Of a DNA stretch of 34,410 nt, positions 1-34,410 are shown piece after piece. Below the pieces are notes generated by a model. That model ran no database searches. It was not told the origin of the DNA and was given only the letters and a program-made list of their open reading frames with translations. Source of the stretch: a virus. Its lineage: Duplodnaviria > Heunggongvirae > Uroviricota > Caudoviricetes. The first letter of the stretch is position 1, and each line of letters opens with the position of its first letter. Made by a program: the position numbers and the translations under genes. The DNA is taken from IMG/VR virus record IMGVR_UViG_2778261135_000004; one strand, given 5' to 3'.

Positions 1-318
1 ATGAAAAAGATAGCTGCTATATCATTAATTAGTATTTTTATTATGTCTGGTTGTGCTGTGCATAATGATGAGACAAGTATCGGTAAATTTGGTCTTGCAT
101 ATAAAAGTAATATTCAGCGTAAACTCGATAACCAATACTACACCGAAGCCGAAGCTTCTTTAGCCAGGGGCAGAATATCTGGTGCAGAAAATATAGTAAA
201 AAATGATGCAGCCCATTTCTGTGTTACTCAGGGCAAAAAAATGCAGATAGTTGACCTGAAGACAGAAGGTGCAGGATTACATGGCGTCGCTCGTCTGACA
301 TTCAAATGTGGAGAGTGA
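1..318 (+). CDS. yegR: Host small lipoprotein (YegR-like), 105 aa
   Basis: Complete ORF at window start; N-terminal signal peptide with lipobox (IFIMSGC); lies outside the att repeat, so host rather than phage. Symbol from recalled similarity to E. coli YegR, not from a search. Confidence 0.7.
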   Translation: MKKIAAISLISIFIMSGCAVHNDETSIGKFGLAYKSNIQRKLDNQYYTEAEASLARGRISGAENIVKNDAAHFCVTQGKKMQIVDLKTEGAGLHGVARLTFKCGE

Positions 319-476
319 GAATATTTTTTGGTAAGCGTCAAACATGCGCGTTCTGGTTGTGCTTAGCCGGAACCTGTGCGAGCACGATGCCGTTACGTGA
401 AAGGCATCGTGCTATGAAGGGAGATTCTATCGATGTGGTCAATGGAAGACGGTGACCAGGGATAGGGCTTATGCAT

Positions 477-503
477 AAAAAATAAGCCCGTGTAAGGGAG
501 ATT
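477..503. repeat. attL: attL core (27-bp direct repeat AAAAAATAAGCCCGTGTAAGGGAGATT)
   Basis: Exact 27-bp copy of the sequence at 32878..32904; immediately adjacent to int 3' end; matches the P2 att core as I recall it. Confidence 0.9.
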
Positions 504-582
504 TAGGGTGTCACCATTAGGGGCTTTCAACGGTACAATGCGGGTTTGAGCGGCATAAATTACCACTGAAAGCCCTTAAACG

Positions 583-1596
583 TTACTCTACTGTGGACAC
601 TGTGTGGACACTCTCAGCCTCAGTACCACCTCTTAGCGGATTAAGAGAAATGGCGTCCTGAAGGTACTCTGGCGCAAAATGAGCGTAAACCATAGTTTGC
701 TCAATCCGTGTGTGACCTAGTATCCGTTGTAGCGTGATAATACTTCCTCCATTAATCATGAAATGAGTGGCAAAGCTGTGCCTTAGTGCATGTGTGGCTT
801 GCCCCATTGGCAAATCCGGTTTTATTGCTTTCATTGTTCGTCTGAAGCGAGGGTAATCAGCATCAGGGAATAAAAAACCTCGTTTGTTATCCGCGATCAT
901 TTTGGCAACAGCCTCTGAGATCGGGACGGTGCGTGGTTTGTTTGTTTTCGTTTTAACAAACGTGACGCGGTTATGGATAATATTTTCTGCTTTCAAACGA
1001 GCTGCTTCTCCCCAACGTGCTCCAGTACTCAGGCAAAGAATCGCAATCTTTTTGTTGTCGCCGTCAAGAGCAGCAAGCAGTAAGGCAATTTCTTCCTGCG
1101 TGAGATAGCCTGTGTCTGGTTTTTCCTCCTTAAGCCTTTTTGTCCCTCTGATAGGGTGCTCACCAAAGAATAACTCCGCTTCAATCAGGGCTGTAAACAT
1201 GCCGCTAATACATGTTAAATCACGATTGATACTCGAAGGTTTAATACCCTGACTTCTTCGGGTGGCGCAGTACTGGCTGATAAGCGATTTCGTAATTTGA
1301 AATGCGCATGGGTCATTCGTTATTTTTGTGAAGATTTCAATTTTTCCAAGATTAGATCTCCCATGCTCTTCGTGTTTACCCTTTAAATCCCACCAGATCT
1401 GTGTCAGCTCCGACAGACGTCGCTTGTCTGTTGGTTTTGATAGCCATTCTTTATTGTGGTGGTTGTACAACGTGTATTTCTCGAAAGCGACAGCTTCGCT
1501 TTTCTTATCAAACTTCCTACGGATGCGTTTTCCATTACGTCCAGTAGGGCGGATGTCCACTTCATATCGACCATCATCGAGTTTTTTGATTGCCAT
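583..1596 (-). CDS. int: Tyrosine integrase (P2 Int-like), 337 aa
   Basis: 337-aa ORF adjacent to attL; C-terminal catalytic region with R..HxxR..Y motifs (ALRHSFATH..., MVYAHF); length and sequence recognisably P2 Int. Confidence 0.95.
   Translation of the reverse strand: MAIKKLDDGRYEVDIRPTGRNGKRIRRKFDKKSEAVAFEKYTLYNHHNKEWLSKPTDKRRLSELTQIWWDLKGKHEEHGRSNLGKIEIFTKITNDPCAFQITKSLISQYCATRRSQGIKPSSINRDLTCISGMFTALIEAELFFGEHPIRGTKRLKEEKPDTGYLTQEEIALLLAALDGDNKKIAILCLSTGARWGEAARLKAENIIHNRVTFVKTKTNKPRTVPISEAVAKMIADNKRGFLFPDADYPRFRRTMKAIKPDLPMGQATHALRHSFATHFMINGGSIITLQRILGHTRIEQTMVYAHFAPEYLQDAISLNPLRGGTEAESVHTVSTVE
592..611. promoter_or_regulatory. Putative Int arm-type binding sites (P' arm): two direct TGTGGACAC repeats 11 bp apart
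   Basis: Direct repeats TGTGGACAC at 592..600 and 603..611, one helical turn apart, next to the att core and overlapping the int 3' end; similar TGTGGNC repeats occur in the opposite arm at 32819..32837. Confidence 0.6.
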
Positions 1597-1711
1597 CAGA
1601 AAACCCTCCGAGTGGTGTGTTTTTTTGCGACTACTAATCGCTTTTTTCGTGGTGGCTGAAATTTAGCCACCAATAGTAGGCACTTGTGATGAATATATTC
1701 ACGATGAATTG

Positions 1712-2011
1712 TTAACCAGTCTTTTGACCGGAGTGGGGCGACGTTGTTTCGTTTTGCCCAAAGTGTGCGAGAGCGGGCGCAATTTGCCCGGACTCAGGAG
1801 CGATCTGATTGGTCATGAACCATAAAGTGTATTTGGTGAATTGTGGGGTCTGCAGGATGTTCATCATGACATCTGTTGGAGGTGTTGAACGACCACTTTC
1901 ATAGTAACTCAGCGTGCCATACGGAACCCCTGTTAAATCAGCAAGTTGTTGTCTGCTCAAATACTCTGATTTTCGCATTAAGACTATCTTCTCGCTTATC
2001 GTGTTTGACAT
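1712..2011 (-). CDS. C: Immunity repressor C (P2 C-like), 99 aa
   Basis: 99-aa ORF upstream of and co-oriented with int, divergent from cox; HTH segment (LSRQQLADLTGVPYGTLSYYESG); P2 C length. Confidence 0.9.
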   Translation of the reverse strand: MSNTISEKIVLMRKSEYLSRQQLADLTGVPYGTLSYYESGRSTPPTDVMMNILQTPQFTKYTLWFMTNQIAPESGQIAPALAHFGQNETTSPHSGQKTG

Positions 2012-2014
2012 GGT

Positions 2015-2044
2015 GTTTAGATCTCAATAGTATTTAGTTTAGAT
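2015..2044. promoter_or_regulatory. Early control region: two direct GTTTAGAT repeats (putative C operator half-sites O1/O2) within the divergent Pc/Pe promoter region
   Basis: GTTTAGAT at 2015..2022 and 2037..2044, 22 bp apart (two helical turns), in the 114-bp gap between divergent C and cox; matches the known P2 operator arrangement of direct repeats. Confidence 0.6.
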
Positions 2045-2125
2045 GTAGATTGTTTAGTGCTTGAATGTGGGCACTAAAAGGCATTATAAGGCATTAAACG
2101 CAATTCATGAGGGCTGGAGGACGAC

Positions 2126-2401
2126 ATGAGCAAGCAAGTAACACTCATGACTGATGCGATTCCTTATCAGGAGTTCGCAAAACTAATAGGAAAATCGACA
2201 GGAGCGGTTCGTCGGATGATCGATAAAGGAAAGCTGCCTGTAATTGATATGACCGATCCACAATCAGCTTCAGGTCGTGCAGGTGAATATTGGGTATACC
2301 TTCCGGCATGGAATAACGGACTAAAACTGGCTTATGAAAGCCGTCCTAAAGAGATTCGTGACGGCTGGTTGATGTGGTTAGGTCTCGGTGAACCACGTTA
2401 A
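2126..2401 (+). CDS. cox: Cox excisionase / early-promoter regulator, 91 aa
   Basis: 91-aa ORF, first gene of the rightward early operon divergent from C; P2 Cox length and sequence. Confidence 0.9.
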   Translation: MSKQVTLMTDAIPYQEFAKLIGKSTGAVRRMIDKGKLPVIDMTDPQSASGRAGEYWVYLPAWNNGLKLAYESRPKEIRDGWLMWLGLGEPR

Positions 2402-2411
2402 GGAGAACCGT

Positions 2412-2582
2412 ATGAATGAGCCTCGTTGTATTGCTCAGTTATTGCGTAACGAAAGCCCCAGGGCGATTGACTTCACCATCACCCACGGTAAGGGGCGTAA
2501 GGGAATCATTATCCGCACCAAAAAACAGAGTCCGTTAAAAAAGGCTCTGACCTTTCTGAAAAGCCGGAGGGTCTGGAAATGA
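2412..2582 (+). CDS. Small early protein (P2 orf78-like), 56 aa
   Basis: ATG at 2412 preceded by AGGAG (2402..2406); the 2388 start in the ORF track is a GTG inside the cox 3' end; stop overlaps B start (ATGA). Confidence 0.7.
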   Translation: MNEPRCIAQLLRNESPRAIDFTITHGKGRKGIIIRTKKQSPLKKALTFLKSRRVWK

Positions 2583-3079
2583 CAGTGATGACGCTCAATC
2601 TCGTTGAAAAACAGCCAGCAACTATGCGCCGGATAATTGGTAAGCATCTTGCCGTCCCTCGCTGGCAGGAGACATGCGATTATTATAATCAGATGATGGA
2701 ACGCGAACGGCTAACGGTTTGCTTCCATGCGCAGTTAAAACAGCGTCACGCAACGATGCGTTTTGAAGAAATGAACGACGTCGAACGTGAACGACTGGTA
2801 TGTGCAATTGATGAATTGCGTGGGGCATTCTCAAAACGCCGTCAGGTTGGCGCAAGTGAGTATGCATATATTAGTTTTTTAACAGTCAGTCAGCGCCGTA
2901 CTTTATTTATGCATGCCGGATTGACTGAAAAAGAATTTAACCAGCCATACTGGCGAATTAATGAAGAGTCATGTTACTGGCGTGATGCTTTATTCCGTGC
3001 GTTACGTGAATTATTCAGTCTGTTTGAGTATGCACCGACAATTCTGACGTCGGTAAAACCAGAGCAATATCTGCATTAA
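2579..3079 (+). CDS. B: Replication protein B (helicase-loader-like), 166 aa
   Basis: 166-aa ORF in the early operon; P2 gpB length and sequence. Confidence 0.9.
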   Translation: MTVMTLNLVEKQPATMRRIIGKHLAVPRWQETCDYYNQMMERERLTVCFHAQLKQRHATMRFEEMNDVERERLVCAIDELRGAFSKRRQVGASEYAYISFLTVSQRRTLFMHAGLTEKEFNQPYWRINEESCYWRDALFRALRELFSLFEYAPTILTSVKPEQYLH

Positions 3080-3142
3080 GTAATTAACCAGAGTTTTTAA
3101 CGCACTTAATCGTGCGGGGCTTCTTTTTGCCTGGAGAAAGTC

Positions 3143-3367
3143 ATGCATACAGTTTCTGAAAATCAGTGCGGTAAATACGCATTACTGCTGCAACAGGCCA
3201 GAACCGAAGCACAGGCCGACGCAGCGACGCGCTTTTCTTCTCATCTTGACGCCATGATTCGCCACATCACAAAGGCGGAGTTATCCCGCGTGGAGATAGT
3301 CGAGCTGCTCAGTCAGGAGTCGGAAAAATTTCACAATATCGGATTATCTCGCGGGGAGGTGCTTTGA
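3143..3367 (+). CDS. Hypothetical early protein (P2 orf80-like), 74 aa
   Basis: Position between B and A in early operon; RBS-like GGAGAAAG upstream. Confidence 0.75.
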
Positions 3368-3669
3368 TGTCCTGTTCTCATTCAGTTGTATTACTGAATA
3401 ACGCCTTAAAAATCGCTGTTATGAAAAATGGCGATTTATCTCTTATTCAACTTGGTCTTGATAAAGAAAAACGCGAAATAACTGAGTCTGTTATCGCGAT
3501 TTATCAGAACGAATTAAATCTCCTGTCTGATGTGGTCAATTTACTTGTTAAACGCGCTGTATTTCACAAGCAAATCTCCTCCGTGGATGAACTGACGAAA
3601 TTAACGACAGAAATTGCCAGCTATTGCGCTGATGAATTTAAAAAACTTAACGACAAAAGGAGCTGGTAA
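3364..3669 (+). CDS. Hypothetical early protein (P2 orf81-like), 101 aa
   Basis: Start overlaps previous stop (ATGA-type coupling); notably lower G+C than neighbours. Confidence 0.75.
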
Positions 3670-3893
3670 TGCCGGACAACGTAGATTTTATTCAGGAACA
3701 ACAGGCTGAATTACTGGAGCGCCAGATTAACGCGGCAAGAGTAAAACATTGCGGTGCTTCTGCGCTGGTTTGCGAAGAGTGTGACGCGCCAATACCTGCT
3801 GCCCGTCGTGCGGCTTATCCGTCAGCCACGCGTTGTGTTTCCTGTCAGTCAGTCTTTGAAGCAAAAAACAAACATTACCGGAGAATGGCATGA
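3669..3893 (+). CDS. TraR/DksA-type C4 zinc-finger protein (P2 orf82-like), 74 aa
   Basis: Cys pairs CEECDAPIP...CVSCQ typical of the TraR/DksA zinc-finger family; position in early operon. Confidence 0.8.
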   Translation: MPDNVDFIQEQQAELLERQINAARVKHCGASALVCEECDAPIPAARRAAYPSATRCVSCQSVFEAKNKHYRRMA

Positions 3894-4165
3894 GCATTCG
3901 TATTGAAATTGGCGAACGTTATGTCGTTACCAGTGACAGCTTTCAGTTTATTCTCCACGAGAAAAAGAGAGCGGAAAGCGGTAAAAACGCCGGTCAGGAA
4001 TGGCTGGCGGTGGTTGGTTATTACCCGAAATTAAGCCAGCTCGTTTCCGGCCTGATGCATCACGATATTCTGACCGGAAGCGCAAAGTCTTTTGCTGATT
4101 TAAACGCGCAGGTTGAGCAACTCAGCAGGCGTTGTTCAGAGGCTTTTGGCTCATATGGCCGTTAA
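3890..4165 (+). CDS. Hypothetical early protein (P2 orf83-like), 91 aa
   Basis: Translationally coupled ORF immediately upstream of A; overlaps A start by 11 nt. Confidence 0.75.
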   Translation: MSIRIEIGERYVVTSDSFQFILHEKKRAESGKNAGQEWLAVVGYYPKLSQLVSGLMHHDILTGSAKSFADLNAQVEQLSRRCSEAFGSYGR

Positions 4166-6422
4166 AGCCTCCGGGCGTTTTGTCCCTCCGTCAGCATTTG
4201 CCGCAGGCACCGGTAAGACGTTTACCGGTGCTTATGCATGGAACGCGCCACGTGAGGCTGTCGGGCGCGAAAGACCCCTTACACGTGACGAGATGCGTCA
4301 GGTGCAAGGTGTTTTATCCACGATTAACCGCCTGCCTTACTTTTTGCGCTCGCTGTTTACTTCACGTTATGACTACATCCGGCGCAATAAAAGCCCGGTG
4401 CACGGGTTTTATTTCCTCACATCCACTTTTCAGCGTCGTTTATGGCCGCGCATTGAGCGTGTGAATCAGCGCCATGAAATGAACACCGACGCGTCGTTGC
4501 TGTTTCTGGCAGAGCGTGACCACTATGCGCGCCTGCCGGGAATGAATGACAAGGAGCTGAAAAAATTTGCCGCCCGTATCTCATCGCAGCTTTTCATGAT
4601 GTATGAGGAACTCAGCGATGCCTGGGTGGATGCGCATGGCGAAAAAGAATCGCTGTTTACGGATGAGGCGCAGGCTCACCTCTATGGTCATGTTGCTGGC
4701 GCTGCACGTGCTTTCAATATTTCCCCGCTCTACTGGAAAAAATACCGTAAAGGACAGATGACCACGAGGCAGGCATATTCTGCCATTGCCCGTCTGTTTA
4801 ACGATGAGTGGTGGACTCATCAGCTTAAAGGCCAGCGTATGCGCTGGCATGAGGCGTTACTGATCGCTGTCGGGGAGGTCAATAAAGACCGTTCTCCTTA
4901 TGCCAGTAAACATGCCATTCGTGATGTACGTGCACGCCGCCAGGCAAATCTGGAATTTCTTAAATCGTGTGACCTTGAAAACAGGGAAACCGGCGAGCGC
5001 ATCGACCTTATCAGTAAGGTGATGGGCAGTATTTCTAATCCTGAAATTCGCCGGATGGAGCTGATGAACACCATCGCCGGTATTGAGCGTTACGCCGCCG
5101 CAGAGGGTGATGTGGGGATGTTTATCACGCTGACCGCGCCGTCAAAGTATCATCCGACACGTCAGGTCAGAAAAGGCGAAAGTAAAACCGTCCAGCTAAA
5201 TCACGGCTGGAACGATGAGGCATTTAATCCAAAGGATGCGCAGCGTTATCTCTGCCGTATCTGGAGCCTGATGCGCACGGCATTCAAGGATAATGATTTA
5301 CAGGTCTACGGTTTGCGAGTCGTCGAGCCACACCACGACGGAACGCCGCACTGGCATATGATGCTTTTTTGTAATCCACGCCAGCGTAACCAGATTATCG
5401 AAATCATGCGTCGCTATGCGCTCAAAGAGGATGGCGACGAAAGAGGAGCCGCGCGAAACCGTTTTCAGGCAAAACATCTTAACCGGGGCGGTGCTGCGGG
5501 GTATATCGCGAAATACATCTCAAAAAACATCGATGGCTATGCACTGGATGGTCAGCTCGATAACGATACCGGCAGGCCGCTGAAAGATACTGCTGCGGCT
5601 GTTACCGCATGGGCGTCAACGTGGCGCATCCCGCAATTTAAAACGGTTGGCCTGCCGACAATGGGGGCTTACCGTGAACTACGCAAATTGCCTCGCGGCG
5701 TCAGCATTGCTGATGAGTTTGACGAACGCGTTGAGGCTGCACGTGCCGCCGCAGACAGTGGTGATTTTGCGTTGTATATCAGCGCGCAGGGTGGGGCAAA
5801 TGTTCCGCGTGATTGCCAGACTGTCAGAGTCGCCCGTAGCCCGTCGGATGACGTTAACGAGTACGAGGAAGAAGTCGAGAGAGTGGTCGGCATTTACGCG
5901 CCGCATCTCGGCGCGCGTCATATTCATATCACCAGAACGACGGACTGGCGCATTGTGCCGAAAGTTCCGGTCGTTGAGCCTTTGACTTTAAAAAGCGGCA
6001 TCGCTGCGCCTCGGAGTCCTGTCAATAACTGTGGAAAGCTCACCGGTGGTGATACTTCGTTACCGGCTCCCACACCTTCTGAGCACGCTGCAGCAGTGCT
6101 TAATCTGGTTGATGACGGTGTCATCGAATGGAGTGACCCGGAGGTCGTGAGGGCGCTCAGGGGCGCATTAAAACACGACCTGAGAACACCAAACCGTCAG
6201 CAAAGAAACGGAAGCCCGTTAAAACCACATGAAATTGCACCATCGGCCAGACTGACCCGGTCGGAAAGAATGCAAATCACCCGTATCCGCGTTGACCTTG
6301 CTCAGAACGGTATCAGGCCGCAGCGATGGGAGCTTGAGGCGCTGGCGCGTGGCGCGACTGTAAATTATGACGGGAAACAATTCATGTATCTGGTCGCTGA
6401 TGAGTGGATAGGTTTTAGGTGA
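4155..6422 (+). CDS. A: Replication initiation endonuclease A (rolling-circle initiator), ~755 aa
   Basis: Begins MAVKASGRFVPP... at ATG 4155 (ORF track start 4113 is an upstream extension); contains the HxH-type motif (TPHWHMMLF) and the Tyr-containing region (YIAKYISKNIDGY) expected of P2 gpA-family initiators. Confidence 0.9.
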   Translation: MAVKASGRFVPPSAFAAGTGKTFTGAYAWNAPREAVGRERPLTRDEMRQVQGVLSTINRLPYFLRSLFTSRYDYIRRNKSPVHGFYFLTSTFQRRLWPRIERVNQRHEMNTDASLLFLAERDHYARLPGMNDKELKKFAARISSQLFMMYEELSDAWVDAHGEKESLFTDEAQAHLYGHVAGAARAFNISPLYWKKYRKGQMTTRQAYSAIARLFNDEWWTHQLKGQRMRWHEALLIAVGEVNKDRSPYASKHAIRDVRARRQANLEFLKSCDLENRETGERIDLISKVMGSISNPEIRRMELMNTIAGIERYAAAEGDVGMFITLTAPSKYHPTRQVRKGESKTVQLNHGWNDEAFNPKDAQRYLCRIWSLMRTAFKDNDLQVYGLRVVEPHHDGTPHWHMMLFCNPRQRNQIIEIMRRYALKEDGDERGAARNRFQAKHLNRGGAAGYIAKYISKNIDGYALDGQLDNDTGRPLKDTAAAVTAWASTWRIPQFKTVGLPTMGAYRELRKLPRGVSIADEFDERVEAARAAADSGDFALYISAQGGANVPRDCQTVRVARSPSDDVNEYEEEVERVVGIYAPHLGARHIHITRTTDWRIVPKVPVVEPLTLKSGIAAPRSPVNNCGKLTGGDTSLPAPTPSEHAAAVLNLVDDGVIEWSDPEVVRALRGALKHDLRTPNRQQRNGSPLKPHEIAPSARLTRSERMQITRIRVDLAQNGIRPQRWELEALARGATVNYDGKQFMYLVADEWIGFR

Positions 6423-9083: not shown

Positions 9084-9171
9084 CTGTTGGGGATTTTTAT
9101 CGTTCATAGTTTATCCTGCCTGTTTTAGAGAAGGTGCATTGTTGCATTAAAACCGCCCCATGAAGCGGGCG

Positions 9172-9190
9172 GGCGAGGCGGGGAAAGCAC
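9172..9190. other. cos: cos site (19-nt cohesive-end sequence GGCGAGGCGGGGAAAGCAC)
   Basis: Exact match to the P2 cohesive-end sequence as I recall it, located between the right-end cargo and Q, where cos lies in a P2 prophage. Confidence 0.8.
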
Positions 9191-9242
9191 TGCGCGCTGT
9201 TTTGTGCGGTGGTGAGTGTGTGAGGGCGTGATGACGGGGTGT

Positions 9243-26173: not shown

Positions 26174-27364
26174 ATGAGTGACTATCATCACGGCGTGCAG
26201 GTGCTGGAGATTAACGACGGCACCCGCGTCATTTCCACCGTATCCACTGCCATTGTCGGCTTGGTCTGCACGGCCAGCGATGCGGATGCGGAAACCTTCC
26301 CCCTCAATAAACCTGTGCTGATTACCAATGTGCAGAGTGCAATTGCAAAGGCTGGTAAAAAAGGCACGCTGGCGGCATCGTTGCAGGCCATCGCTGACCA
26401 GTCAAAACCGGTCACCGTTGTTGTGCGTGTGGAAGACGGCACCGGCGACGACGAGGAAACGAAACTCGCGCAGACCGTATCCAATATCATCGGCACCACC
26501 GACGAAAACGGTCAGTACACCGGACTGAAAGCCCTGCTGGCGGCGGAGTCGGTAACCGGTGTTAAACCGCGTATTCTCGGTGTGCCGGGACTGGACACCA
26601 AAGAGGTGGCTGTTGCACTGGCATCAGTCTGTCAGAAGCTGCGCGCTTTCGGGTATATCAGCGCATGGGGCTGTAAGACCATTTCCGAGGTGAAAGCCTA
26701 CCGCCAGAATTTCAGCCAGCGTGAGCTGATGGTCATCTGGCCGGATTTCCTCGCATGGGATACGGTCACCAGCACCACCGCCACCGCGTATGCCACCGCC
26801 CGTGCGCTGGGTCTGCGTGCCAGAATCGACCAGGAGCAGGGCTGGCATAAAACGCTGTCCAATGTCGGGGTGAACGGTGTTACCGGCATCAGCGCATCTG
26901 TATTCTGGGATTTGCAGGAGTCCGGCACCGATGCTGACCTGCTTAACGAGTCAGGCGTCACTACGCTGATTCGCCGTGACGGTTTCCGATTCTGGGGTAA
27001 CCGTACCTGCTCTGATGACCCGCTTTTCCTCTTTGAAAACTACACCCGCACCGCGCAGGTGCTGGCCGATACGATGGCTGAGGCGCACATGTGGGCGGTG
27101 GACAAGCCCATCACCGCAACGCTGATTCGCGACATCGTTGACGGCATCAATGCCAAATTCCGTGAGCTGAAAACAAACGGCTATATCGTGGATGCGACCT
27201 GCTGGTTCAGCGAAGAATCCAACGATGCGGAAACCCTCAAGGCCGGAAAACTGTATATCGACTACGACTATACCCCGGTGCCTCCTCTCGAAAACCTGAC
27301 CCTGCGCCAGCGTATCACCGATAAATACCTGGCAAATCTGGTCACTTCGGTTAACAGCAATTAA
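26174..27364 (+). CDS. FI: Tail sheath protein FI, 396 aa
   Basis: 396-aa ORF; P2 gpFI length and sequence. Confidence 0.95.
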   Translation: MSDYHHGVQVLEINDGTRVISTVSTAIVGLVCTASDADAETFPLNKPVLITNVQSAIAKAGKKGTLAASLQAIADQSKPVTVVVRVEDGTGDDEETKLAQTVSNIIGTTDENGQYTGLKALLAAESVTGVKPRILGVPGLDTKEVAVALASVCQKLRAFGYISAWGCKTISEVKAYRQNFSQRELMVIWPDFLAWDTVTSTTATAYATARALGLRARIDQEQGWHKTLSNVGVNGVTGISASVFWDLQESGTDADLLNESGVTTLIRRDGFRFWGNRTCSDDPLFLFENYTRTAQVLADTMAEAHMWAVDKPITATLIRDIVDGINAKFRELKTNGYIVDATCWFSEESNDAETLKAGKLYIDYDYTPVPPLENLTLRQRITDKYLANLVTSVNSN

Positions 27365-27376
27365 GGAGACTGACCG

Positions 27377-27895
27377 ATGGCAATGCCGCGCAAACTCAAG
27401 TTAATGAACGTCTTTCTGAACGGCTACAGCTATCAGGGCGTTGCAAAGTCCGTCACGCTGCCAAAACTGACCCGTAAGCTCGAAAACTATCGCGGTGCGG
27501 GGATGAACGGCAGCGCACCGGTAGACCTCGGCCTTGATGACGATGCGCTGTCAATGGAGTGGTCGCTCGGGGGCTTCCCGGATTCGGTTATCTGGGAGCT
27601 TTACGCCGCAACCGGTGTGGATGCCGTGCCGATTCGTTTTGCAGGCTCTTACCAGCGCGACGATACCGGCGAAACGGTGGCCGTCGAAGTGGTCATGCGT
27701 GGACGTCAGAAAGAAATCGACACCGGCGAGGGTAAACAGGGAGAAGACACCGAGTCGAAAATCTCCGTGGTCTGCACCTATTTCCGGCTGACGATGGACG
27801 GTAAGGAGCTGGTCGAAATCGACACCATCAACATGATTGAGAAGGTGAACGGCGTCGACCGGCTGGAGCAACACCGCCGAAATATCGGCCTGTGA
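27377..27895 (+). CDS. FII: Tail tube protein FII, 172 aa
   Basis: 172-aa ORF after FI; P2 gpFII length. Confidence 0.95.
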   Translation: MAMPRKLKLMNVFLNGYSYQGVAKSVTLPKLTRKLENYRGAGMNGSAPVDLGLDDDALSMEWSLGGFPDSVIWELYAATGVDAVPIRFAGSYQRDDTGETVAVEVVMRGRQKEIDTGEGKQGEDTESKISVVCTYFRLTMDGKELVEIDTINMIEKVNGVDRLEQHRRNIGL

Positions 27896-27951
27896 TTTTC
27901 ATCCGGTCAGCCTGGCTGACCGGTTAACCCTGATTCAGAAGTGAGAAAACC

Positions 27952-28227
27952 ATGAACAAAGAAAATGTGATTACCCTGGACAATCCGGTCAAGCGTGGTG
28001 AGCAGGTTATCGAACAGGTCACGCTGATGAAACCCAATGCCGGGACGCTGCGCGGTGTCAGTCTGGCTGCGGTCGCGAACTCCGAAGTCGATGCACTGAT
28101 TAAAGTGCTGCCGCGCATGACGGCACCGATGCTGACCGAACAGGAGGTCGCCGCGCTGGAACTGCCTGACCTTGTGGCGCTGGCCGGTAAGGTGGTCGGT
28201 TTTTTGTCGCCGAACTCGGTGCAGTGA
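27952..28227 (+). CDS. E: Tail assembly chaperone E, 91 aa
   Basis: 91-aa ORF between tube and tape-measure genes; ends shortly after a T7G slippery run. Confidence 0.9.
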   Translation: MNKENVITLDNPVKRGEQVIEQVTLMKPNAGTLRGVSLAAVANSEVDALIKVLPRMTAPMLTEQEVAALELPDLVALAGKVVGFLSPNSVQ

Positions 28228-28379
28228 CGTTTCCGAAAAATCTCTCGGTCGATGACCTGATGGCGGATGTGGCAGTGATATTTCACTGGCCGCCATCAGA
28301 ACTGTATCCCATGAGCCTGACCGAACTCATCACATGGCGCGAAAAGGCGCTCCGGCGAAGCGGAAACACGAATGAGTAA
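27952..28379 (+). CDS. E': Tail assembly chaperone E+E' (programmed -1 frameshift product, ~142 aa)
   Basis: Slippery TTTTTTG at 28200..28206; the -1 frame from there reads FFVAELGAVTFPKNLSVDDLMADVAVIFHWPPSELYPMSLTELITWREKALRRSGNTNE and stops at 28377..28379, overlapping the T start; matches the known P2 E/E' arrangement. Confidence 0.8.
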
Positions 28380-30819
28380 CAATGTAAAATTACAGGTATT
28401 GCTCAGGGCTGTTGACCAGGCATCCCGCCCGTTTAAATCCATCCGCACAGCGAGCAAATCGCTGTCGGGGGATATCCGGGAAACACAAAAATCACTGCGC
28501 GAGCTGAACGGTCAGGCATCCCGTATTGAGGGATTTCGCAAGACCAGTGCACAGCTCGCCGTGACTGGTCATGCACTTGAAAAGGCTCGGCAGGAAGCCG
28601 AAGCCCTTGCCACACAGTTTAAAAACACCGAACGTCCGACCCGTGCTCAGGCGAAAGTGCTGGAATCCGCAAAGCGTGCGGCGGAGGACTTACAGGCGAA
28701 ATATAACCGCCTGACGGATTCTGTTAAACGCCAGCAGCGGGAACTGGCCGTTGTGGGAATTAATACCCGCAATCTTGCACATGATGAGCAGGGACTGAAA
28801 AACCGTATCAGTGAAACCACCGCACAGCTTAACCGTCAGCGTGACGCGCTGGCGCGTGTCAGTGCACAACAGGTAAAACTTAACGCAGTCAAACAGCGTT
28901 ATCAGGCAGGAAAGGAACTGGCCGGAAATATGGCCTCAGTGGGCGCTGCCGGTGTGGGGATTGCAGCTGCGGGAACGATGGCCGGAGTTAAGCTGCTGAT
29001 GCCCGGTTATGAGTTTGCGCAGAAAAACTCAGAATTACAGGCTGTGCTCGGTGTGGCAAAAGACTCCGCCGAAATGACCGCACTCCGCAAGCAGGCGCGC
29101 CAGCTCGGCGACAATACCGCAGCCTCGGCAGATGATGCAGCCGGTGCACAGATTATCATTGCGAAAGCGGGTGGAGATGCTGCGGCTATTCAGGCGGCAA
29201 CGCCGGTCACGCTGAATATGGCACTGGCGAATCAGCGGTCGATGGAAGAAAACGCGCAACTGTTGCTGGGGACTAAGGCATCCTTTCAACTGTCAAATGA
29301 TGATGTCAGCCATGTGGGCGACGTGTTGTCGGCAACGATGAATAAGTCGGCGGCTGATTTTCAGGGACTCAGTGATGCACTGACTTACCTCGGGCCGGTT
29401 GCGAGGACGGCAGGTGTAAGTCTTGAGCAGGCAGCAGCCATGACAGGTGTGCTGCATGACAATAACATCAGGGGGTCAATGGCGGGGACGGGTAGCAGTG
29501 CCGTTGTCACCCGATTACAGGCACCGACTGGAAAAGCATGGGATGCACTCAAAGAGCTTGGCGTGAAAACCTCGGACAAAAAGGGAAATATGCGTCCGTT
29601 ATTCACCATTCTGAAAGAGATTCAGGCCAGCTTTGATAAACACAAGCTGGGAACGTCTCAGAAGGGGGAATACCTTAAAACCATTTTTGGTGAGGAAGCC
29701 CTGAAATCAGCGAACGTTTTACTGGCAGCGGCAGCAAGCGGAAAACTGGATAAGCTGACCGCCACGCTGAAAGCCTCGGACGGTAAAACGGAAGAGCTGG
29801 TTAAAATCATGCAGGATAACCTCGGCGGTGACTTTAAGGAGTTTCAGTCCGCTTATGAGGCGGTGGGGACTGACCTGTTTGACCAGCAGGAAGGCGCGCT
29901 GCGTAAGCTCACGCAGACAGCCACAAAGTATGTGTTAAAACTCGACGGCTGGATCCAGAAAAACAAATCACTGGCGTCAACCATCGGCATCATTGCCGGT
30001 GGCGCGCTGGCGCTTACTGGCATCATCGGTGCCATTGGCCTTGTAGCCTGGCCGGTTATCACCGGCATCAATGCCATCATCGCGGCAGCAGGCGCAATGG
30101 GGGCAATCTTCACGACGGTTGGCAGTGCCGTTATGACGGCCATCGGGGCGATTAGCTGGCCGGTTGTGGCTGTGGTGGCCGCCATTGTCGCCGGGGCGTT
30201 GCTTATCCGTAAATACTGGGAGCCTGTCAGCGCATTCTTTGGCGGTGTGGTGGAAGGGCTGAAAGCGGCATTTGCGCCGGTGGGGGAACTGTTCACGCCA
30301 CTTAAGCCGGTGTTTGACTGGCTGGGAGAAAAGTTACAGGCCGCGTGGCAGTGGTTTAAAAACCTGATTGCCCCGGTTAAAGCCACACAGGACACCCTGA
30401 ACCGTTGCCGTGACACGGGCGTCATGTTCGGGCAGGCACTGGCTGACGCGTTGATGCTGCCGCTTAATGCGTTCAACAAACTGCGCAGTGGTATTGACTG
30501 GGTACTGGAAAAACTCGGTGTTATCAACAAAGAGTCAGACACACTTGACCAGACCGCCGCAAGGACTAATGCCGCCACGTATGGCACCGGTGGTTATATT
30601 CCGGCGACCAGCTCTTTTGCAGGCTATCAGGCTTATCAGCCGGTCACGGCACCGGCTGGCCGCTCTTATGTGGACCAGAGTAAAAACGAATATCACATCA
30701 GCCTGACGGGCGGTACTGCGCCGGAGACACAGCTTGACCGCCAGTTACAGGATGCGCTCGAAAAATACGAGCGGGATAAACGTGCGCGCGCCCGTGCCAG
30801 CATGATGCATGACGGTTAA
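28372..30819 (+). CDS. T: Tail tape measure protein T, 815 aa
   Basis: 815-aa ORF with coiled-coil N-terminal part and hydrophobic Gly/Ala-rich segments; P2 gpT length. Confidence 0.95.
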   Translation: MSNNVKLQVLLRAVDQASRPFKSIRTASKSLSGDIRETQKSLRELNGQASRIEGFRKTSAQLAVTGHALEKARQEAEALATQFKNTERPTRAQAKVLESAKRAAEDLQAKYNRLTDSVKRQQRELAVVGINTRNLAHDEQGLKNRISETTAQLNRQRDALARVSAQQVKLNAVKQRYQAGKELAGNMASVGAAGVGIAAAGTMAGVKLLMPGYEFAQKNSELQAVLGVAKDSAEMTALRKQARQLGDNTAASADDAAGAQIIIAKAGGDAAAIQAATPVTLNMALANQRSMEENAQLLLGTKASFQLSNDDVSHVGDVLSATMNKSAADFQGLSDALTYLGPVARTAGVSLEQAAAMTGVLHDNNIRGSMAGTGSSAVVTRLQAPTGKAWDALKELGVKTSDKKGNMRPLFTILKEIQASFDKHKLGTSQKGEYLKTIFGEEALKSANVLLAAAASGKLDKLTATLKASDGKTEELVKIMQDNLGGDFKEFQSAYEAVGTDLFDQQEGALRKLTQTATKYVLKLDGWIQKNKSLASTIGIIAGGALALTGIIGAIGLVAWPVITGINAIIAAAGAMGAIFTTVGSAVMTAIGAISWPVVAVVAAIVAGALLIRKYWEPVSAFFGGVVEGLKAAFAPVGELFTPLKPVFDWLGEKLQAAWQWFKNLIAPVKATQDTLNRCRDTGVMFGQALADALMLPLNAFNKLRSGIDWVLEKLGVINKESDTLDQTAARTNAATYGTGGYIPATSSFAGYQAYQPVTAPAGRSYVDQSKNEYHISLTGGTAPETQLDRQLQDALEKYERDKRARARASMMHDG

Positions 30820-30833
30820 GGAGGTGACGAAAA

Positions 30834-31313
30834 ATGATGCTCGCGTTAGGTATGTTTGTTTTTATGCGCCAGACGCTGCCACACCAGACCATGCAGCGTG
30901 AATCAGATTATCGCTGGCCGTCAAATTCCCGTATCGGTAAACGGGATGCCTACCAGTTTCTCGGTGTGGGTGAGGAAAACATCACGCTTGCCGGTGTGCT
31001 TTATCCTGAACTGACCGGCGGAAAGCTGACGATGACCACGCTCAGGCTGATGGCAGAGGAAGGCCGGGCGTGGCCGTTGCTGGATGGCACAGGCATGATT
31101 TACGGCATGTATGTCATCAGCAGGGTGAGTGAAACAGGGAGTATTTTCTTTGCAGACGGCACACCCCGGAAAATTGATTTTACGCTGTCACTCACCCGCG
31201 TTGATGAATCACTGGCCGCGCTTTATGGCGATATCGGTAAACAGGCGGAGTCGCTCATCGGTAAGGCTGGCAGTCTGGCGACCAGATTCACGGGGATGAC
31301 GGGGGCGGAATAA
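30834..31313 (+). CDS. U: Tail protein U, 159 aa
   Basis: 159-aa ORF after T; P2 gpU length. Confidence 0.9.
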   Translation: MMLALGMFVFMRQTLPHQTMQRESDYRWPSNSRIGKRDAYQFLGVGEENITLAGVLYPELTGGKLTMTTLRLMAEEGRAWPLLDGTGMIYGMYVISRVSETGSIFFADGTPRKIDFTLSLTRVDESLAALYGDIGKQAESLIGKAGSLATRFTGMTGAE

Positions 31314-32476
31314 TGCTGGATGCGCTGACATTTGATGCAGGCAGTACGCTGACGCCGGATTACATGCTGATGCTCGACAGCAGGGATATTACCGGCAATA
31401 TCAGCGACCGTCTGATGAGCATGACCCTGACGGATAACCGGGGCTTTGAGGCTGACCAGCTTGATATTGAACTGAACGATGTCGACGGGCAGGTCGGGCT
31501 GCCGGTTCGTGGCGCTGTCCTGACGGTGTATATCGGCTGGAAAGGTTTTGCCCTGGTATGCAAAGGGAAATTTACCGTTGATGAGGTTGAACACCGGGGC
31601 GCACCGGATGTGGTCACCATCCGCGCCCGGAGTGCAGATTTTCGCGGGACGCTCAATTCCCGCCGGGAAGGCTCATGGCATGACACCACGCTCGGTGCGA
31701 TTGTTGAGGCGATAGCCTCCCGTAACAGGCTGGAAGCCAGTGTCGCTCCGTCACTGGCCGGAATTAAAATCCCGCACATCGACCAGTCGCAGGAGTCTGA
31801 TGCGAAATTTCTGACCCGTCTTGCAGAACGCAACGGCGGTGAGGTGTCGGTAAAAATGGGAAAACTGCTGTTTCTCAAAGCGGGGCAGGGGGTGACGGCC
31901 AGCGGTAAAAAAATCCCGCAGATTACCATCACCCGCAGCGACGGCGACCGTCATCATTTTGCGATTGCTGACCGTGGAGCTTACACCGGCGTAACGGCAA
32001 AGTGGTTACACACCAAAGACCCGAAGCCGCAAAAGCAGAAGGTAAAACTGAAACGCAAAAAGAAAGAAAAACACCTGCGCGCACTGGAGCACCCGAAAGC
32101 GAAACCGGTCACGCAGAAGAAAGCGCCAAAAGTACCGGAAGCGCGCGAAGGTGAATACATGGCCGGTGAGGCTGACAACGTTTTTGCCCTGACCACGGTA
32201 TATGCCACGAAAGCGCAGGCCATGCGCGCCGCTCAGGCGAAGTGGGATAAGCTGCAACGGGGCGTTGCGGAGTTCTCCATCAGTCTGGCTACCGGTCGTG
32301 CTGATATTTACACGGAAACACCGGTTAAAGTGTCAGGCTTTAAGCGCGTCATAGACGAGCAGGACTGGACAATCACTAAGGTGACACATTTTCTGAATAA
32401 TAGCGGCTTCACGACGTCCTTGGAGCTTGAGGTCAGGCTTTCTGATGTGGAGTACGAAACAGAAGATGATGAGTGA
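31313..32476 (+). CDS. D: Tail protein D (late control D family), 387 aa
   Basis: 387-aa ORF overlapping the U stop (ATGA); P2 gpD length. Confidence 0.9.
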   Translation: MLDALTFDAGSTLTPDYMLMLDSRDITGNISDRLMSMTLTDNRGFEADQLDIELNDVDGQVGLPVRGAVLTVYIGWKGFALVCKGKFTVDEVEHRGAPDVVTIRARSADFRGTLNSRREGSWHDTTLGAIVEAIASRNRLEASVAPSLAGIKIPHIDQSQESDAKFLTRLAERNGGEVSVKMGKLLFLKAGQGVTASGKKIPQITITRSDGDRHHFAIADRGAYTGVTAKWLHTKDPKPQKQKVKLKRKKKEKHLRALEHPKAKPVTQKKAPKVPEAREGEYMAGEADNVFALTTVYATKAQAMRAAQAKWDKLQRGVAEFSISLATGRADIYTETPVKVSGFKRVIDEQDWTITKVTHFLNNSGFTTSLELEVRLSDVEYETEDDE

Positions 32477-32557
32477 TGTTTTTATTTTATCTGTTTGTTT
32501 TATAAGGATAAATTAACTAAAATGGCACCATCAACAAAACCGGAAGAGGTGCTCGCG

Positions 32558-32776
32558 ATGTTTCATTGTCCTTTATGCCAGCATGCCGCACATGCGCGTA
32601 CAAGTCGCTATATCACTGACACGACAAAAGAGCGTTATCACCAGTGCCAGAACGTGAATTGCAGCGCCACGTTCATCACTTATGAGTCGGTACAGCGATA
32701 CATCGTGAAGCCGGGAGAAGTCCACGCCGTAAGGCCGCACCCGTTGCCGTCAGGGCAGCAAATTATGTGGATGTAA
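32558..32776 (+). CDS. ogr: Late gene transcription activator Ogr (zinc-finger), 72 aa
   Basis: Begins MFHCPLCQHAAHARTSRYITDTTKERYHQCQNVNCSATF at ATG 32558 (track start 32495 is an extension); CxxC...CxxxxC zinc-binding motif; last gene before attR as in P2. Confidence 0.9.
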   Translation: MFHCPLCQHAAHARTSRYITDTTKERYHQCQNVNCSATFITYESVQRYIVKPGEVHAVRPHPLPSGQQIMWM

Positions 32777-32787
32777 TTACAAACAGG

Positions 32788-32813
32788 AAGCCCCTCAGTC
32801 GAGGGGCTTTTTT
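32788..32813 (+). terminator. Rho-independent terminator downstream of ogr
   Basis: GCCCCTC-AGTC-GAGGGGC hairpin followed by TTTTTT, 12 nt after the ogr stop. Confidence 0.85.
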
Positions 32814-32818
32814 GTCGA

Positions 32819-32837
32819 TGTGGTCAATGTGTGGACG
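32819..32837. promoter_or_regulatory. Putative Int arm-type binding sites (P arm): TGTGGTCA and TGTGGACG, 11 bp apart
   Basis: Direct repeats at 32819..32826 and 32830..32837 related to the TGTGGACAC repeats near attL; lie between the ogr terminator and the att core. Confidence 0.55.
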
Positions 32838-32877
32838 TGACCAGAAATAAATCCTTTTATTTCATTGTATTACGCGT

Positions 32878-32904
32878 AAAAAATAAGCCCGTGTAAGGGA
32901 GATT
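32878..32904. repeat. attR: attR core (27-bp direct repeat AAAAAATAAGCCCGTGTAAGGGAGATT)
   Basis: Exact copy of 477..503; marks the right prophage-host junction. Confidence 0.9.
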
Positions 32905-33048
32905 ACACAGGCTAAGGAGGTGGTTCCTGGTACAGCTAGCATTTTATGGGTTATGTTTTTCAGCGAAACGGATGATAACCTTAATAAATGCAGCTGTATG
33001 TGATCGGTTTCTAAGAATTTTCCATCCGGGAAAAATAATCGAAATTAA

Positions 33049-34410
33049 TCACTTACCGTGGGGATTACGCGTGGTTTCCCCGGAGAAATTACGCATCAGC
33101 AGCGCGTAATTGAGCTCAAGATCCTGCGGGACCGGGAGCCACACAGTATAACCATCGCCTGGTGCTATCGGCATAGCTTCGCCTTTGGCGTTTTCCATGT
33201 GCTCAAGGGTAAAATTAATGTTGCCTTGCGGCGTCATCAGCTCAAGGCTGTCGCCAACGGAGAATTTATTTTTCACCGCTACCGCCGCGAGGTCCCCCTT
33301 GCGCTCACCGGTAAACTCACCAACAAACTGCTGGCGGTCAGAAACTGAATAACCGTATTCGTAGTTCTGATAATCGTCGTGAGTATGACGACGCAGGAAA
33401 CCTTCGGTATAGCCACGATGCGCCAGACCTTCCAGAGTTTCCAGCAGGCTGGTATCGAACGGTTTTCCCGCAGCGGCGTCATCGATAGCTTTGCGGTAAA
33501 CCTGTGCGGTGCGTGCACAATAGTAGAAAGATTTGGTACGACCTTCGATTTTCAGCGAATGCACGCCCATTTTGGTCAGGCGTTCTACATGGGCGATGGC
33601 GCGCAGATCTTTCGAGTTCATGATGTAAGTGCCGTGCTCATCTTCAAACGCGGTCATATACTCGCCCGGACGCTGGGCCTCTTCGATCATAAACACTTTG
33701 TCGGTTGGTGCGCCGATACCCAGCGTCGGCTCAACATTTTGCACCGGAATCGGCTCGTACTTGTGTACGATGTTGCCAACATCATCTTCTTTCCCTTCCT
33801 GGACGTTGTACTCCCAGCGGCAGGCGTTGGTGCAGGTGCCCTGGTTCGGGTCGCGCTTGTTGATATAGCCAGAGAGCAGGCAGCGACCGGAGTAGGCCAT
33901 GCACAGCGCGCCGTGAACGAAGATCTCGATCTCCATATCCGGCACCTGATTGCGGATCTCTTCAATCTCTTCCAGCGACAGCTCGCGAGAGAGGATCACG
34001 CGGGTCAGGCCCATTTGCTGCCAGAATTTCACCGTCGCCCAGTTCACGGCGTTAGCCTGCACCGAAAGGTGGATCGGCATTTCAGGGAAGTGCTCACGCA
34101 CCAGCATAATCAGCCCTGGATCGGACATAATCAGCGCATCCGGCCCCATTTCCACCACCGGTTTCAGGTCACGGATAAAGGTTTTCAGCTTGGCGTTGTG
34201 CGGTGCAATGTTGACCACGACATAAAACTTTTTCCCCAGCGCGTGGGCTTCATTGATGCCGAGCTGAAGATTTTCGTGGTTGAATTCGTTGTTGCGCACA
34301 CGCAGGGAATAACGCGGCTGGCCCGCATAAACAGCATCTGCGCCATAAGCGAAAGCGTAACGCATATTTTTCAGCGTTCCCGCCGGGGAAAGGAGTTCCG
34401 GTTTAAACAT
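33049..34410 (-). CDS. yegQ: Host U32-family peptidase-like protein (YegQ/RlhA-like), 453 aa
   Basis: Complete 453-aa ORF outside attR; G+C and sequence typical of enterobacterial core genes. Symbol from recalled similarity to E. coli YegQ, not from a search. Confidence 0.8.
   Translation of the reverse strand: MFKPELLSPAGTLKNMRYAFAYGADAVYAGQPRYSLRVRNNEFNHENLQLGINEAHALGKKFYVVVNIAPHNAKLKTFIRDLKPVVEMGPDALIMSDPGLIMLVREHFPEMPIHLSVQANAVNWATVKFWQQMGLTRVILSRELSLEEIEEIRNQVPDMEIEIFVHGALCMAYSGRCLLSGYINKRDPNQGTCTNACRWEYNVQEGKEDDVGNIVHKYEPIPVQNVEPTLGIGAPTDKVFMIEEAQRPGEYMTAFEDEHGTYIMNSKDLRAIAHVERLTKMGVHSLKIEGRTKSFYYCARTAQVYRKAIDDAAAGKPFDTSLLETLEGLAHRGYTEGFLRRHTHDDYQNYEYGYSVSDRQQFVGEFTGERKGDLAAVAVKNKFSVGDSLELMTPQGNINFTLEHMENAKGEAMPIAPGDGYTVWLPVPQDLELNYALLMRNFSGETTRNPHGK

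Follow-up and report, generated by a model that had tools for sequence, protein, structure and literature searches.

In E. coli K-12 the chromosomal interval between yegR and yegQ carries a P2 remnant. This raises the question of what the same interval holds in the DNA studied here, a stretch of 34,410 nucleotides (the window), and how closely its content follows phage P2. We are highly confident that the window comes from an E. coli chromosome and carries a complete P2-lineage prophage (genus Peduovirus, P2 immunity type); the only unusual aspect of this prophage is a pair of swapped-in defence-type cargo genes.

Insertion site and chromosomal flanks

The attachment sites and their surroundings comprise the following features:
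1–318, + strand: yegR, left chromosomal flank (annotated as yegR in all matching E. coli genomes)
416–464, + strand: bacterial flank resembling the end of the ogr terminator and the Int P arm of attR (39/50 positions match 32801–32849)
477–503, + strand: attL core, 27 bp, orphan copy of the 3′ half of the cyaR terminator (exact repeat, identical to the P2 attP core)
520–615, + strand: Cox-binding region and Int P′ arm of attL (74/74 and 25/27 bases as in the annotated P2 sites)
32788–32879, + strand: ogr/F terminator, Int P arm and IHF site of attR (23/24, 28/28 and 29/34 bases as in P2)
32878–32904, + strand: attR core, 27 bp (exact repeat)
32881–32966, − strand: cyaR (ryeE) sRNA gene (3′ half of the terminator and U tail inside the attR core)
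33049–34410, − strand: yegQ/trhP, right chromosomal flank (annotation in matching E. coli genomes)

A preliminary description of this DNA had the prophage delimited by a perfect 27-bp direct repeat. This is indeed the case: a window-wide search found exactly two + strand copies of the 27-mer AAAAAATAAGCCCGTGTAAGGGAGATT, at 477–503 and 32878–32904. A third copy with up to three mismatches does not occur in the window, and none of 100 shuffles matched. Its sequence is exactly that of the P2 attP core as annotated in NC_001895 (24356–24382). The flanks had been named yegR and yegQ, and comparison with E. coli genomes bore this out: joined across one repeat copy they give a reconstructed 1028-bp 'empty site' that E. 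coli E2865 and strain 6629 contain with 100% identity and with the annotation yegR | yegQ (trhP). This empty site was matched in 5424 of 5426 complete E. coli genomes.

The att repeat corresponds to the 3′ half of the terminator of the sRNA cyaR, which covers the full Rfam model RF00112 with 100.7 bits (gathering score 47) and is identical to K-12 over 89 nt; the preliminary description had not connected the repeat with this gene. The attP core of the phage matches the final 24 nt of cyaR exactly, which means that integration restores a complete cyaR at attR, while the copy at attL is an orphan. On this reading, the prophage was inserted by P2 Int at a 27-bp target located at the 3′ terminus of cyaR, between yegR and yegQ/trhP; the P2 literature calls this site locI. 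The flank at 416–464 is also found in unoccupied sites and, judged by its similarity, resembles a vestige of an older P2-like attR.

Integration at this position is already known biology. The genome paper of E. coli W lists 'cyaR RNA' as an insertion site, occupied by Wphi2 (P2) in E. coli W, ogr-D′ in K-12 and P2*B in E. coli B (PMC3032704), all of which have the attachment site in common with the window. The yegR-attL-int junction of the window recurs in 812 of the 5426 complete genomes (about 15%).

Gene content

The backbone genes of the prophage, compared with P2 (NC_001895 / AF063097) at the protein level, are:
583–1596, − strand: int, tyrosine integrase (337 aa, 99.4%, full length)
1712–2011, − strand: C, immunity repressor (99 aa, 100%)
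2126–2401, + strand: cox, excisionase and Pc repressor (100%)
2412–2582, + strand: orf78 (100%)
2579–3079, + strand: B, replication, lagging-strand synthesis (98.2%, full length)
3143–4165, + strand: orf80, orf81, orf82 and orf83, small early genes (95–98.6%, each full length)
4155–6422, + strand: A, replication initiator nickase (97.9% over P2 A residues 1–754 of 761)
9270–10304, − strand: Q, portal (99.1%)
10304–12076, − strand: P, large terminase (590 aa, 99.7%)
12250–15795, + strand: O scaffold, N major capsid, M small terminase, L head completion and X tail (98–100%, each full length)
15799–17575, + strand: lysis cassette, Y holin, K endolysin, lysA, lysB and lysC (94–100%, each full length)
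17538–18450, + strand: R and S, tail completion (96.8% and 97.3%)
18451–18516, + strand: short S-V spacer without P2 orf30 (same junction in Wphi and L-413C)
18517–20932, + strand: V, W, J and I, baseplate (95.7–100%, each full length)
20943–23261, + strand: H, tail fibre (772 aa, C-terminal part non-P2)
23265–23792, + strand: G, tail-fibre assembly (175 aa, 74% over full length)
26174–28379, + strand: FI sheath, FII tube, E and E+E′ (98–100%)
28372–32476, + strand: T tape measure, U and D (91.8%, 98.7% and 98.7%, each full length)
32558–32776, + strand: ogr, late-gene activator (100%)

Every P2 protein was searched against the window with tblastn. The gene order is that of P2, and 37 backbone genes are full length with 92–100% amino acid identity and no frameshift or stop, which agrees with the earlier statement that the essential genes are full length. 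C, Cox and Ogr match their P2 counterparts at every residue (100%). At the nucleotide level, identity to P2 is ∼97% over the collinear blocks, and the aligned coverage of P2 is about 81%. The same search found no match in the window for P2 orf30, fun(Z), orf91, tin and old. The term 'intact' given to the element previously thus holds for the backbone but not for these five genes; other cargo sits in the two defence loci. The effect of missense changes in essential genes, such as those in T (only 91.8%), is beyond the reach of sequence comparison.

At the position of orf30, S and V lie 66 bp apart as in the viable phages Wphi and L-413C, with 97–98% identity. H differs from its P2 counterpart (669 aa) by a repeat expansion, a 132-bp tandem repeat of 3.5 copies at 21489–21944, and by a different C-terminus: its C-terminal 523 aa are ∼90% identical to phages vB_YpM_46, P37 and VB-YPM-4. 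Both the S-V junction without orf30 and this C-terminal variant of H are also found in phages isolated as virions.

Regulatory sites and lysogeny

Operators, promoters, Int arms, IHF and Cox sites, ori, the slippery site, the pO/pP activator site, tQ, the ogr terminator and cos are all conserved with P2, identically or nearly so. In addition to the att-associated sites, we located:
2005–2108: face-to-face promoters Pe and Pc with operators O1 and O2 (40/40 and 25/26 bases as in P2)
5998–6028: ori nick region within A (30/31 bases)
9143–9197, + strand: cos, the 55-bp stretch common to P2 and P4, including the 19-nt cohesive end at 9172–9190
9243–9264, − strand: tQ terminator (22/22 bases; terminator-like by scan)
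12140–12170: Ogr activator site for the pO and pP promoters (31/31 bases)
28197–28217: E/E′ slippery region (21/21 bases)

The presence of cos and of the Q and ogr terminators, proposed before, is thereby confirmed. The pF activator region diverges from P2, yet TGT-N12-CCA is kept. Local alignment turned up no match to the P2 pV activator site in the window, because the S-V spacer differs from that of P2; this spacer also occurs in viable phages.

From the identity to P2, we infer a life cycle of the P2 type. C would keep Pe off; Cox together with Int and IHF would mediate excision, replication by A and B would start from the ori inside gene A, Ogr would switch on the four late operons, and terminase would cut at the 19-nt cos; the element would still package its DNA and form plaques. 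The earlier suggestion that the prophage may be inducible calls for caution: P2 C is not known to be inactivated by the SOS response, and P2-type immunity is not SOS-inducible. As C of the window is 100% identical, phage release is to be expected only as a spontaneous event or through derepression by P4 epsilon.

Two cargo genes at the P2 defence hotspots

Two genes without P2 counterparts form low-GC islands and replace the two P2 defence loci:
6689–9040, + strand: 783-aa ABC ATPase (AAA_13) between A and cos, tin/old locus
23991–25787, − strand: 598-aa protein between G and FI, fun(Z) locus (mechanical ORF extends to 25799)

Both loci have been described as defence hotspots (PMC9122126, PMC9519451). 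For both genes a defence role is predicted; we found no experimental test of the PADLOC candidate PDC-S06 or of the HNH family in the literature.

The protein between A and cos, which stands in place of tin and old, resembles PrrC and RloC in its architecture. It combines an AAA_13-family ABC ATPase with Walker A/B motifs, a coiled coil, an extended helical insert with an invariant CPFCGQ motif, as in the zinc hook of RloC, and a HEPN-fold domain at the C-terminus in which R...N...H is conserved. Its best HMM match is PDC-S06 rather than a PrrC or RloC model, and its homologues are named 'wobble nucleotide-excising tRNase' by JGI. PrrC and RloC are anticodon nucleases, abortive-infection RNases that join an ABC ATPase to HEPN; the likeness seen here is one of architecture. 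The context also differs, as PrrC is associated with type I R-M whereas the present gene occupies a P2 hotspot. The product of the present gene is probably an abortive-infection RNase.

The protein between G and FI, a rare type in place of fun(Z), is a predicted winged-helix-HNH nuclease: N-terminal tandem winged-helix domains and a coiled coil precede a predicted C-terminal HNH nuclease. The N-terminal 450 aa have no Pfam match and model as tandem winged-helix, like the kleisins JetA and MukF at low Z. In contrast to the type IV modification-dependent HNH enzymes VcaM4I (6yex) and TagI (6ghs), the protein lacks an EVE/PUA/SRA reader domain.

A deletion beside cos and alternative readings

Global alignment with P2 revealed one further difference:
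9197–9198: junction of an 89-bp deletion (about P2 27–115)

The deletion abuts the cos core, starting 7 bp to the right of the cohesive end. It could be that the prophage, although complete in gene content, is grounded, with this deletion or an undetected point defect blocking packaging or plaque formation while the host keeps it mainly as a carrier of immunity and two defence genes. The missing segment is present in all phage records examined (about 100) and, among the E. coli genomes listed, is absent elsewhere only from SBF45, with the same junction. It is also partly conserved between P2 and 186/PSP3 and may for this reason contribute to packaging; longer flanks around cos are reported to improve transduction (PMC9594776). 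However, the 55 bp shared by P2 and P4, a figure also given in PMC9594776, are intact in the window, and P4, which is packaged by the P2 terminase, has no counterpart of the deleted stretch. Moreover, no essential gene is damaged, and in SBF45 the deletion is joined to another early region and other hotspot-1 cargo, a pattern that fits a lineage which kept swapping modules after the deletion arose. We consider a grounded element unlikely.

The SBF45 prophage (NZ_CP067232, 3391.4–3422.0 kb) lies at the same yegR/cyaR/yegQ site and is 99.95% identical over window 9143–34410, including the HNH cargo and the late region; over window 1–6407 identity is only 96–98%, and its A/cos locus has about 1 kb without annotated gene in place of the 783-aa ABC-HEPN gene. 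Such a mosaic could in principle reflect an assembly artefact or a chimera of two genomes that mimics repeat and integration, but both junctions are ordinary: strain CUVM3 has a 100% identical attL junction, which also occurs in the 812 genomes, and SBF45 does not differ from the window on the attR side. Mosaicism at the hotspots is the described norm for P2-like phages (PMC13586616), and an artefact is hardly conceivable. Assignment to another P2-like species, be it Wphi, 186 or a further type, with other immunity and possibly SOS induction also appears very improbable. The tail-fibre C-terminus, G, the cargo and the missing orf30 do differ from P2, and the aligned coverage is probably below a strict species threshold; but C, Cox, Ogr and the operator region match P2 completely, Int nearly so, gene content and order are those of P2, and an extra early gene such as the 186-type tum is absent. 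A complete prophage of the P2 lineage remains the preferred reading.

Relation to the K-12 remnant

According to the preliminary description, K-12 retains a P2 remnant, ogrK and the D-gene fragment yegZ, at this same site. Both a D fragment and ogrK were found there; the name yegZ is absent from the K-12 record that we read. All that K-12 MG1655 has in this interval is ogrK and a truncated pseudogene annotated as 'phage late control D family protein'. The D′-ogrK-attR-cyaR stretch is 97.8% identical to window 32264–33071; at this level of identity, the window element need not be the direct ancestor of the remnant. The left junction of the remnant lies inside the attL core: AAAAAAATAAGCCCGTGTA is kept and is followed by the interior of gene D (corresponding to window 32264). 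This identifies the remnant as the product of an internal deletion of ∼31.8 kb in a prophage that occupied exactly the present site. K-12 has lost all DNA between a point within the attL core and the middle of D, whereas the prophage of the window is whole.

A P2 prophage with a full-length backbone in the 3′ end of cyaR

The preliminary description had delimited the prophage by a perfect 27-bp direct repeat, and this holds: the 27-mer AAAAAATAAGCCCGTGTAAGGGAGATT occurs exactly twice in the window, at 477-503 (attL core) and 32878-32904 (attR core), and is letter for letter the annotated attP core of the reference phage P2 (NC_001895, 24356-24382). No third copy was found in the window at up to three mismatches, and none occurred in 100 shuffles. 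On the phage side of the two cores lie the Int arm, IHF and Cox sites; outside them are yegR at one end and cyaR-yegQ at the other. The genes proposed as flanks are annotated yegR and yegQ (current name trhP). We rebuilt the empty site by joining the left and right flanks over one copy of the repeat: in unoccupied strains, E2865 for example, the yegR-yegQ interval is 100% identical to the resulting 1028 bp. Among 5426 complete E. coli genomes this sequence has a match in 5424, in 4565 of these at one contiguous place.

The right end of the prophage overlaps a small RNA gene:

32881-32966, - strand: cyaR/ryeE sRNA gene, complete Rfam match (100.7 bits, gathering score 47)

Counted with its U tail, cyaR has 89 nt here and is identical to the K-12 gene. 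Its last 24 nt, which consist of the hairpin's descending arm in the terminator plus the U tail, are contained in the attR core, so that P2 enters the 3′ end of cyaR and brings an identical replacement with it; attL holds the orphan half-terminator. Many phages integrate into the 3′ ends of tRNA genes in the same manner and likewise supply an identical replacement; no tRNA genes were found in the window. The cyaR 3′-end site is locI, the preferred site of P2, which was reportedly described together with the 27-nt core by Barreiro and Haggard-Ljungquist in 1992. Of the 5426 complete E. coli genomes, 812 (15%) share the yegR-attL-int junction. In the E. coli W genome paper ‘cyaR RNA’ is given as the insertion site of Wphi2 (P2) in W, of ogr-D' in K-12 and of P2*B in B (PMC3032704). 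P2 at the cyaR site and the K-12 remnant there have long been established, the junction recurs in 15% of complete E. coli genomes, and the phenomenon is textbook and common. The finding as stated in the preliminary description matters little; only the gene for the rare HNH cargo and the naturally occurring deletion beside cos invite experiments. The locus nevertheless provides an example of a temperate phage that restores the sRNA gene whose 3′ end it enters.

On the chromosomal side of attL, window positions 416-464 are similar to the ogr-terminator end together with the attR Int P arm, with agreement at 39 of 50 positions; this stretch is also found in unoccupied strains. An older P2-like prophage may thus have left its last trace in the ‘empty’ yegR-yegQ site.

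Relation to the K-12 remnant

That K-12 keeps only a P2 remnant at this position proved correct: all that MG1655 has of the phage in the same interval is ogrK and a pseudogene, annotated as a truncated ‘phage late control D family protein’. The K-12 sequence is collinear with window positions 1-494, resumes at 32264 inside gene D and continues through yegQ with 97.8% identity. The left breakpoint (approximately position 1990-2000 of the K-12 locus, L002; 494/32264 in the window) falls inside the attL core, so the remnant goes back to a prophage at this site that lost ~31.8 kb in one internal deletion. K-12 therefore offers an example of a cryptic remnant, ogrK-D', derived from one internal deletion that starts in attL. 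The window's element had been described as ancestral in type. The shared site stands, but with a divergence of 2% the element is a relative of the K-12 ancestor and need not be that ancestor itself.

The P2 backbone and its cis-acting sites

In tblastn searches 37 of 42 P2 proteins gave full-length collinear matches in the window without frameshift or internal stop, and all essential genes are open reading frames, in agreement with the earlier impression that they are full length. In blastn comparisons the window and P2 align in four blocks, collinear and in the order of the prophage, at ~94-98% DNA identity, and the P2 gene order is kept: int-C / cox-B-A ... Q-P / O-N-M-L-X-lysis-R-S / V-W-J-I-H-G / FI-FII-E-T-U-D-ogr. 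Protein identity to P2 is 100% for C, Cox, Orf78, Ogr, X, Y, K, I and FII, 99.7% for P, 99.4% for Int and 99.2% for N; the backbone is least P2-like in T (91.8%), in G (74%) and, within H, in the C-terminal two-thirds. The PGAP annotation of E. coli SBF45 (NZ_CP067232), whose late region is 99.95% identical to the window, lists no pseudogenes there. Most annotated P2 cis-acting sites are conserved as well, among them cos and the Q and ogr terminators that had been noted as present:

Cis-acting sites of the window and number of bases identical to P2
Pe/O1/O2: 40/40
Pc: 25/26
Cox sites: 74/74
Int P arm: 28/28
Int P' arm: 25/27
IHF site: 29/34
ori nick region: 30/31
E/E' slippery region: 21/21
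pO/pP activator site: 31/31
tQ: 22/22
ogr/F terminator: 23/24
9172-9190, 19-nt cos: 19/19

The immunity switch is of the P2 type, consisting of C and Cox, the face-to-face promoters Pe and Pc and the operators O1 and O2. Local alignment misplaces the short or divergent P2 sites tO, pV, tV, pF and ogr -35/-10, and nothing was concluded from it at these positions. Instead, pF and the S-V spacer were judged by eye, the spacer also in comparison with viable phages. The pF activator region diverges from that of P2 but retains TGT-N12-CCA; the pV region differs from P2 and equals that of Wphi and L-413C. A pattern search with TGT-N12-ACA for sites of the zinc-finger activator Ogr gave no match at any late promoter.

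Five non-essential P2 genes, orf30, fun(Z), orf91, tin and old, had no match in the window (tblastn). The S-V junction without orf30 is the common configuration; Wphi, L-413C, pro147 and other phages that were isolated as virions have it at 97-98% identity. The tail fibre protein H comprises 772 aa, and a 132-bp tandem repeat in its gene (21489-21944; 3.5 copies, 88% matches) accounts for much of its extra length over P2 H. Over the C-terminal 523 residues its identity to the fibres of three P2-like phages, vB_YpM_46, P37 and VB-YPM-4, is ~90%, which makes H a known and presumably working fibre type. Judged by this comparison, the element is P2 itself except for its accessory parts.

Two cargo genes at the P2 defence hotspots

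The GC content of the window is ~0.55 except for two islands, with values of 0.32-0.33 at 7-9 kb and 0.35-0.39 at 24-26 kb. Defence hotspots of P2 have been described in the interval between A and the portal gene and in the G-FI interval (PMC9122126, PMC9519451, PMC13586616), and the two low-GC islands fall exactly there. Each contains a gene that takes the place of P2 accessory genes:

6689-9040, + strand: cargo 1, ABC ATPase-HEPN protein, 783 aa, PADLOC family PDC-S06, replaces P2 tin/old
23991-25787, - strand: cargo 2, tandem winged-helix and HNH protein, 598 aa, replaces P2 fun(Z)

Cargo 1 matches the HMM of the candidate defence family PDC-S06 (PDLC04895) with an E-value of 1.6e-153 over residues 1-783 (profile positions 1-780 of 784) and Pfam AAA_13 with 1.6e-33. 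In an alignment of 27 homologues residues of the Walker A, signature, Walker B and H-loop motifs are invariant (G32, N34, G37, K38, S567, D599, D600 and H632), as is CPFCGQ in the helical insert; in the C-terminal HEPN-fold domain R699 is invariant and N754 and H758 are nearly so. The protein thereby carries both hallmarks of the anticodon nucleases PrrC and RloC, an N-terminal ABC ATPase domain and a C-terminal HEPN domain with conserved Arg and His, and the JGI product name of its homologues is ‘wobble nucleotide-excising tRNase’. From this architecture we infer that cargo 1 is a predicted abortive-infection RNase. No match named PrrC or RloC was obtained in a PADLOC scan at E-values up to 0.01, PHROGs gave no entry, and a profile of the HEPN domain found nothing among PDB sequences. 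An experimental test of PDC-S06 was not found in the literature, where one preprint names the family solely as a prediction. Cargo 1 occurs in 23 of the 5426 complete E. coli genomes; the closest of these copies, in strain LS45, is 99.8% identical and has the gene for the replication endonuclease on one side and the portal gene on the other.

Cargo 2 contains the HNH catalytic module of the VcaM4I/TagI-type clade of type IV restriction enzymes. Enzymes of this type bear an N-terminal reader of modified bases (EVE, PUA, SRA or YTH), whereas cargo 2 lacks such a domain and is modelled with a winged-helix part instead: Pfam gave no match in the N-terminal 450 residues, residues 1-411 included, and this part models as tandem winged-helix domains with a faint likeness to the kleisins JetA and MukF. 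PHROGs gave only a family of unknown function. The full-length family is rare, with 26 clusters among 5.8 billion proteins and ~8 representatives among 1.84 billion; it was found in 2 of 185,579 species genomes, in no record of IMG/VR, and among the 5426 complete E. coli genomes in SBF45 only. Relatives of just the HNH module number ~1500, some of them with EVE fusions, and the N-terminal module is also joined to a different HNH. Homologues occur as lone genes in cassettes of the V. cholerae superintegron and in an integrase island of Pseudomonas. A search for a link to the integron systems Sirona and Nemetona, both described only as HNH-related, found nothing. A role of cargo 2 in defence is plausible, and we give roughly even chances to the more specific prediction of a single-gene anti-phage nuclease in which a new tandem winged-helix DNA sensor is coupled to a type IV-type HNH module.

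No genome among the 5426 complete ones of E. coli carries both cargo genes. NCBIfam searches yielded sub-threshold matches only, and promoter scans around the two genes gave no excess over shuffled expectation. With its near-identical backbone the element is an example of P2-like phages exchanging defence cargo at two fixed loci, and its two cargo genes, the rare one for the HNH protein and the one for the PDC-S06 ABC-HEPN protein, are candidates that lend themselves to assays of phage defence.

A deletion beside cos and exchange of modules

The 55-bp cos core common to P2 and P4 (PMC9594776), composed of 29 bp, the 19-nt cohesive end and 7 bp, is intact: the 48 bp through the cohesive end are identical to P2 at 47 positions and the next 7 bp match P2. 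Packaged phage DNA of ~32 kb would end at GGCGAGGCGGGGAAAGCAC. Exactly at the end of this core, 7 bp to the right of the cohesive end, 89 bp of P2 (~27-115) are absent from the window (9197/9198), leaving the junction string GCACTGCGCGCTGTTTTGTGCGG. The 89-bp segment is kept in all phage records that span the junction and, apart from SBF45, in every E. coli match listed, drawn from more than 2100 genomes. The deletion is not unique to the window: direct comparison revealed the identical junction in the SBF45 prophage at the same site, the sole one-piece match among the 40 listed for a re-designed query; genomes ranked below these may share it.

Partial conservation of the deleted stretch between P2 and the more distant phages 186 and PSP3 hints at a function. 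P4, however, has no counterpart of it and is yet packaged by P2 terminase. The natural deletion is a free test of which flanking sequences this terminase needs. Packaging efficiency aside, gene content and cis-acting sites are consistent with a viable phage, as far as can be predicted from them. The preliminary description considered the prophage possibly inducible. P2 is not known to be SOS-inducible, and as the element has the P2 C repressor unchanged, ‘inducible’ should here mean release that is spontaneous or follows derepression by a satellite.

The window and SBF45 are 99.95% identical over 9143-34410, i.e. the late region and the right flank, but only 96-98% identical in the early region (1-6407), and SBF45 carries other cargo at the A/cos locus. 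The late module bearing the deletion has thus recombined with different early modules; this mosaicism indicates recombination with a breakpoint at the hotspot beside cos, and such exchange weakly suggests that the lineage stayed mobile. Past the right end of the window, the SBF45 locus (L004) contains a toxin-antitoxin pair of the ParD/ParE family, without annotation in the K-12 locus, at 36513-37107 between yegQ and yegP.
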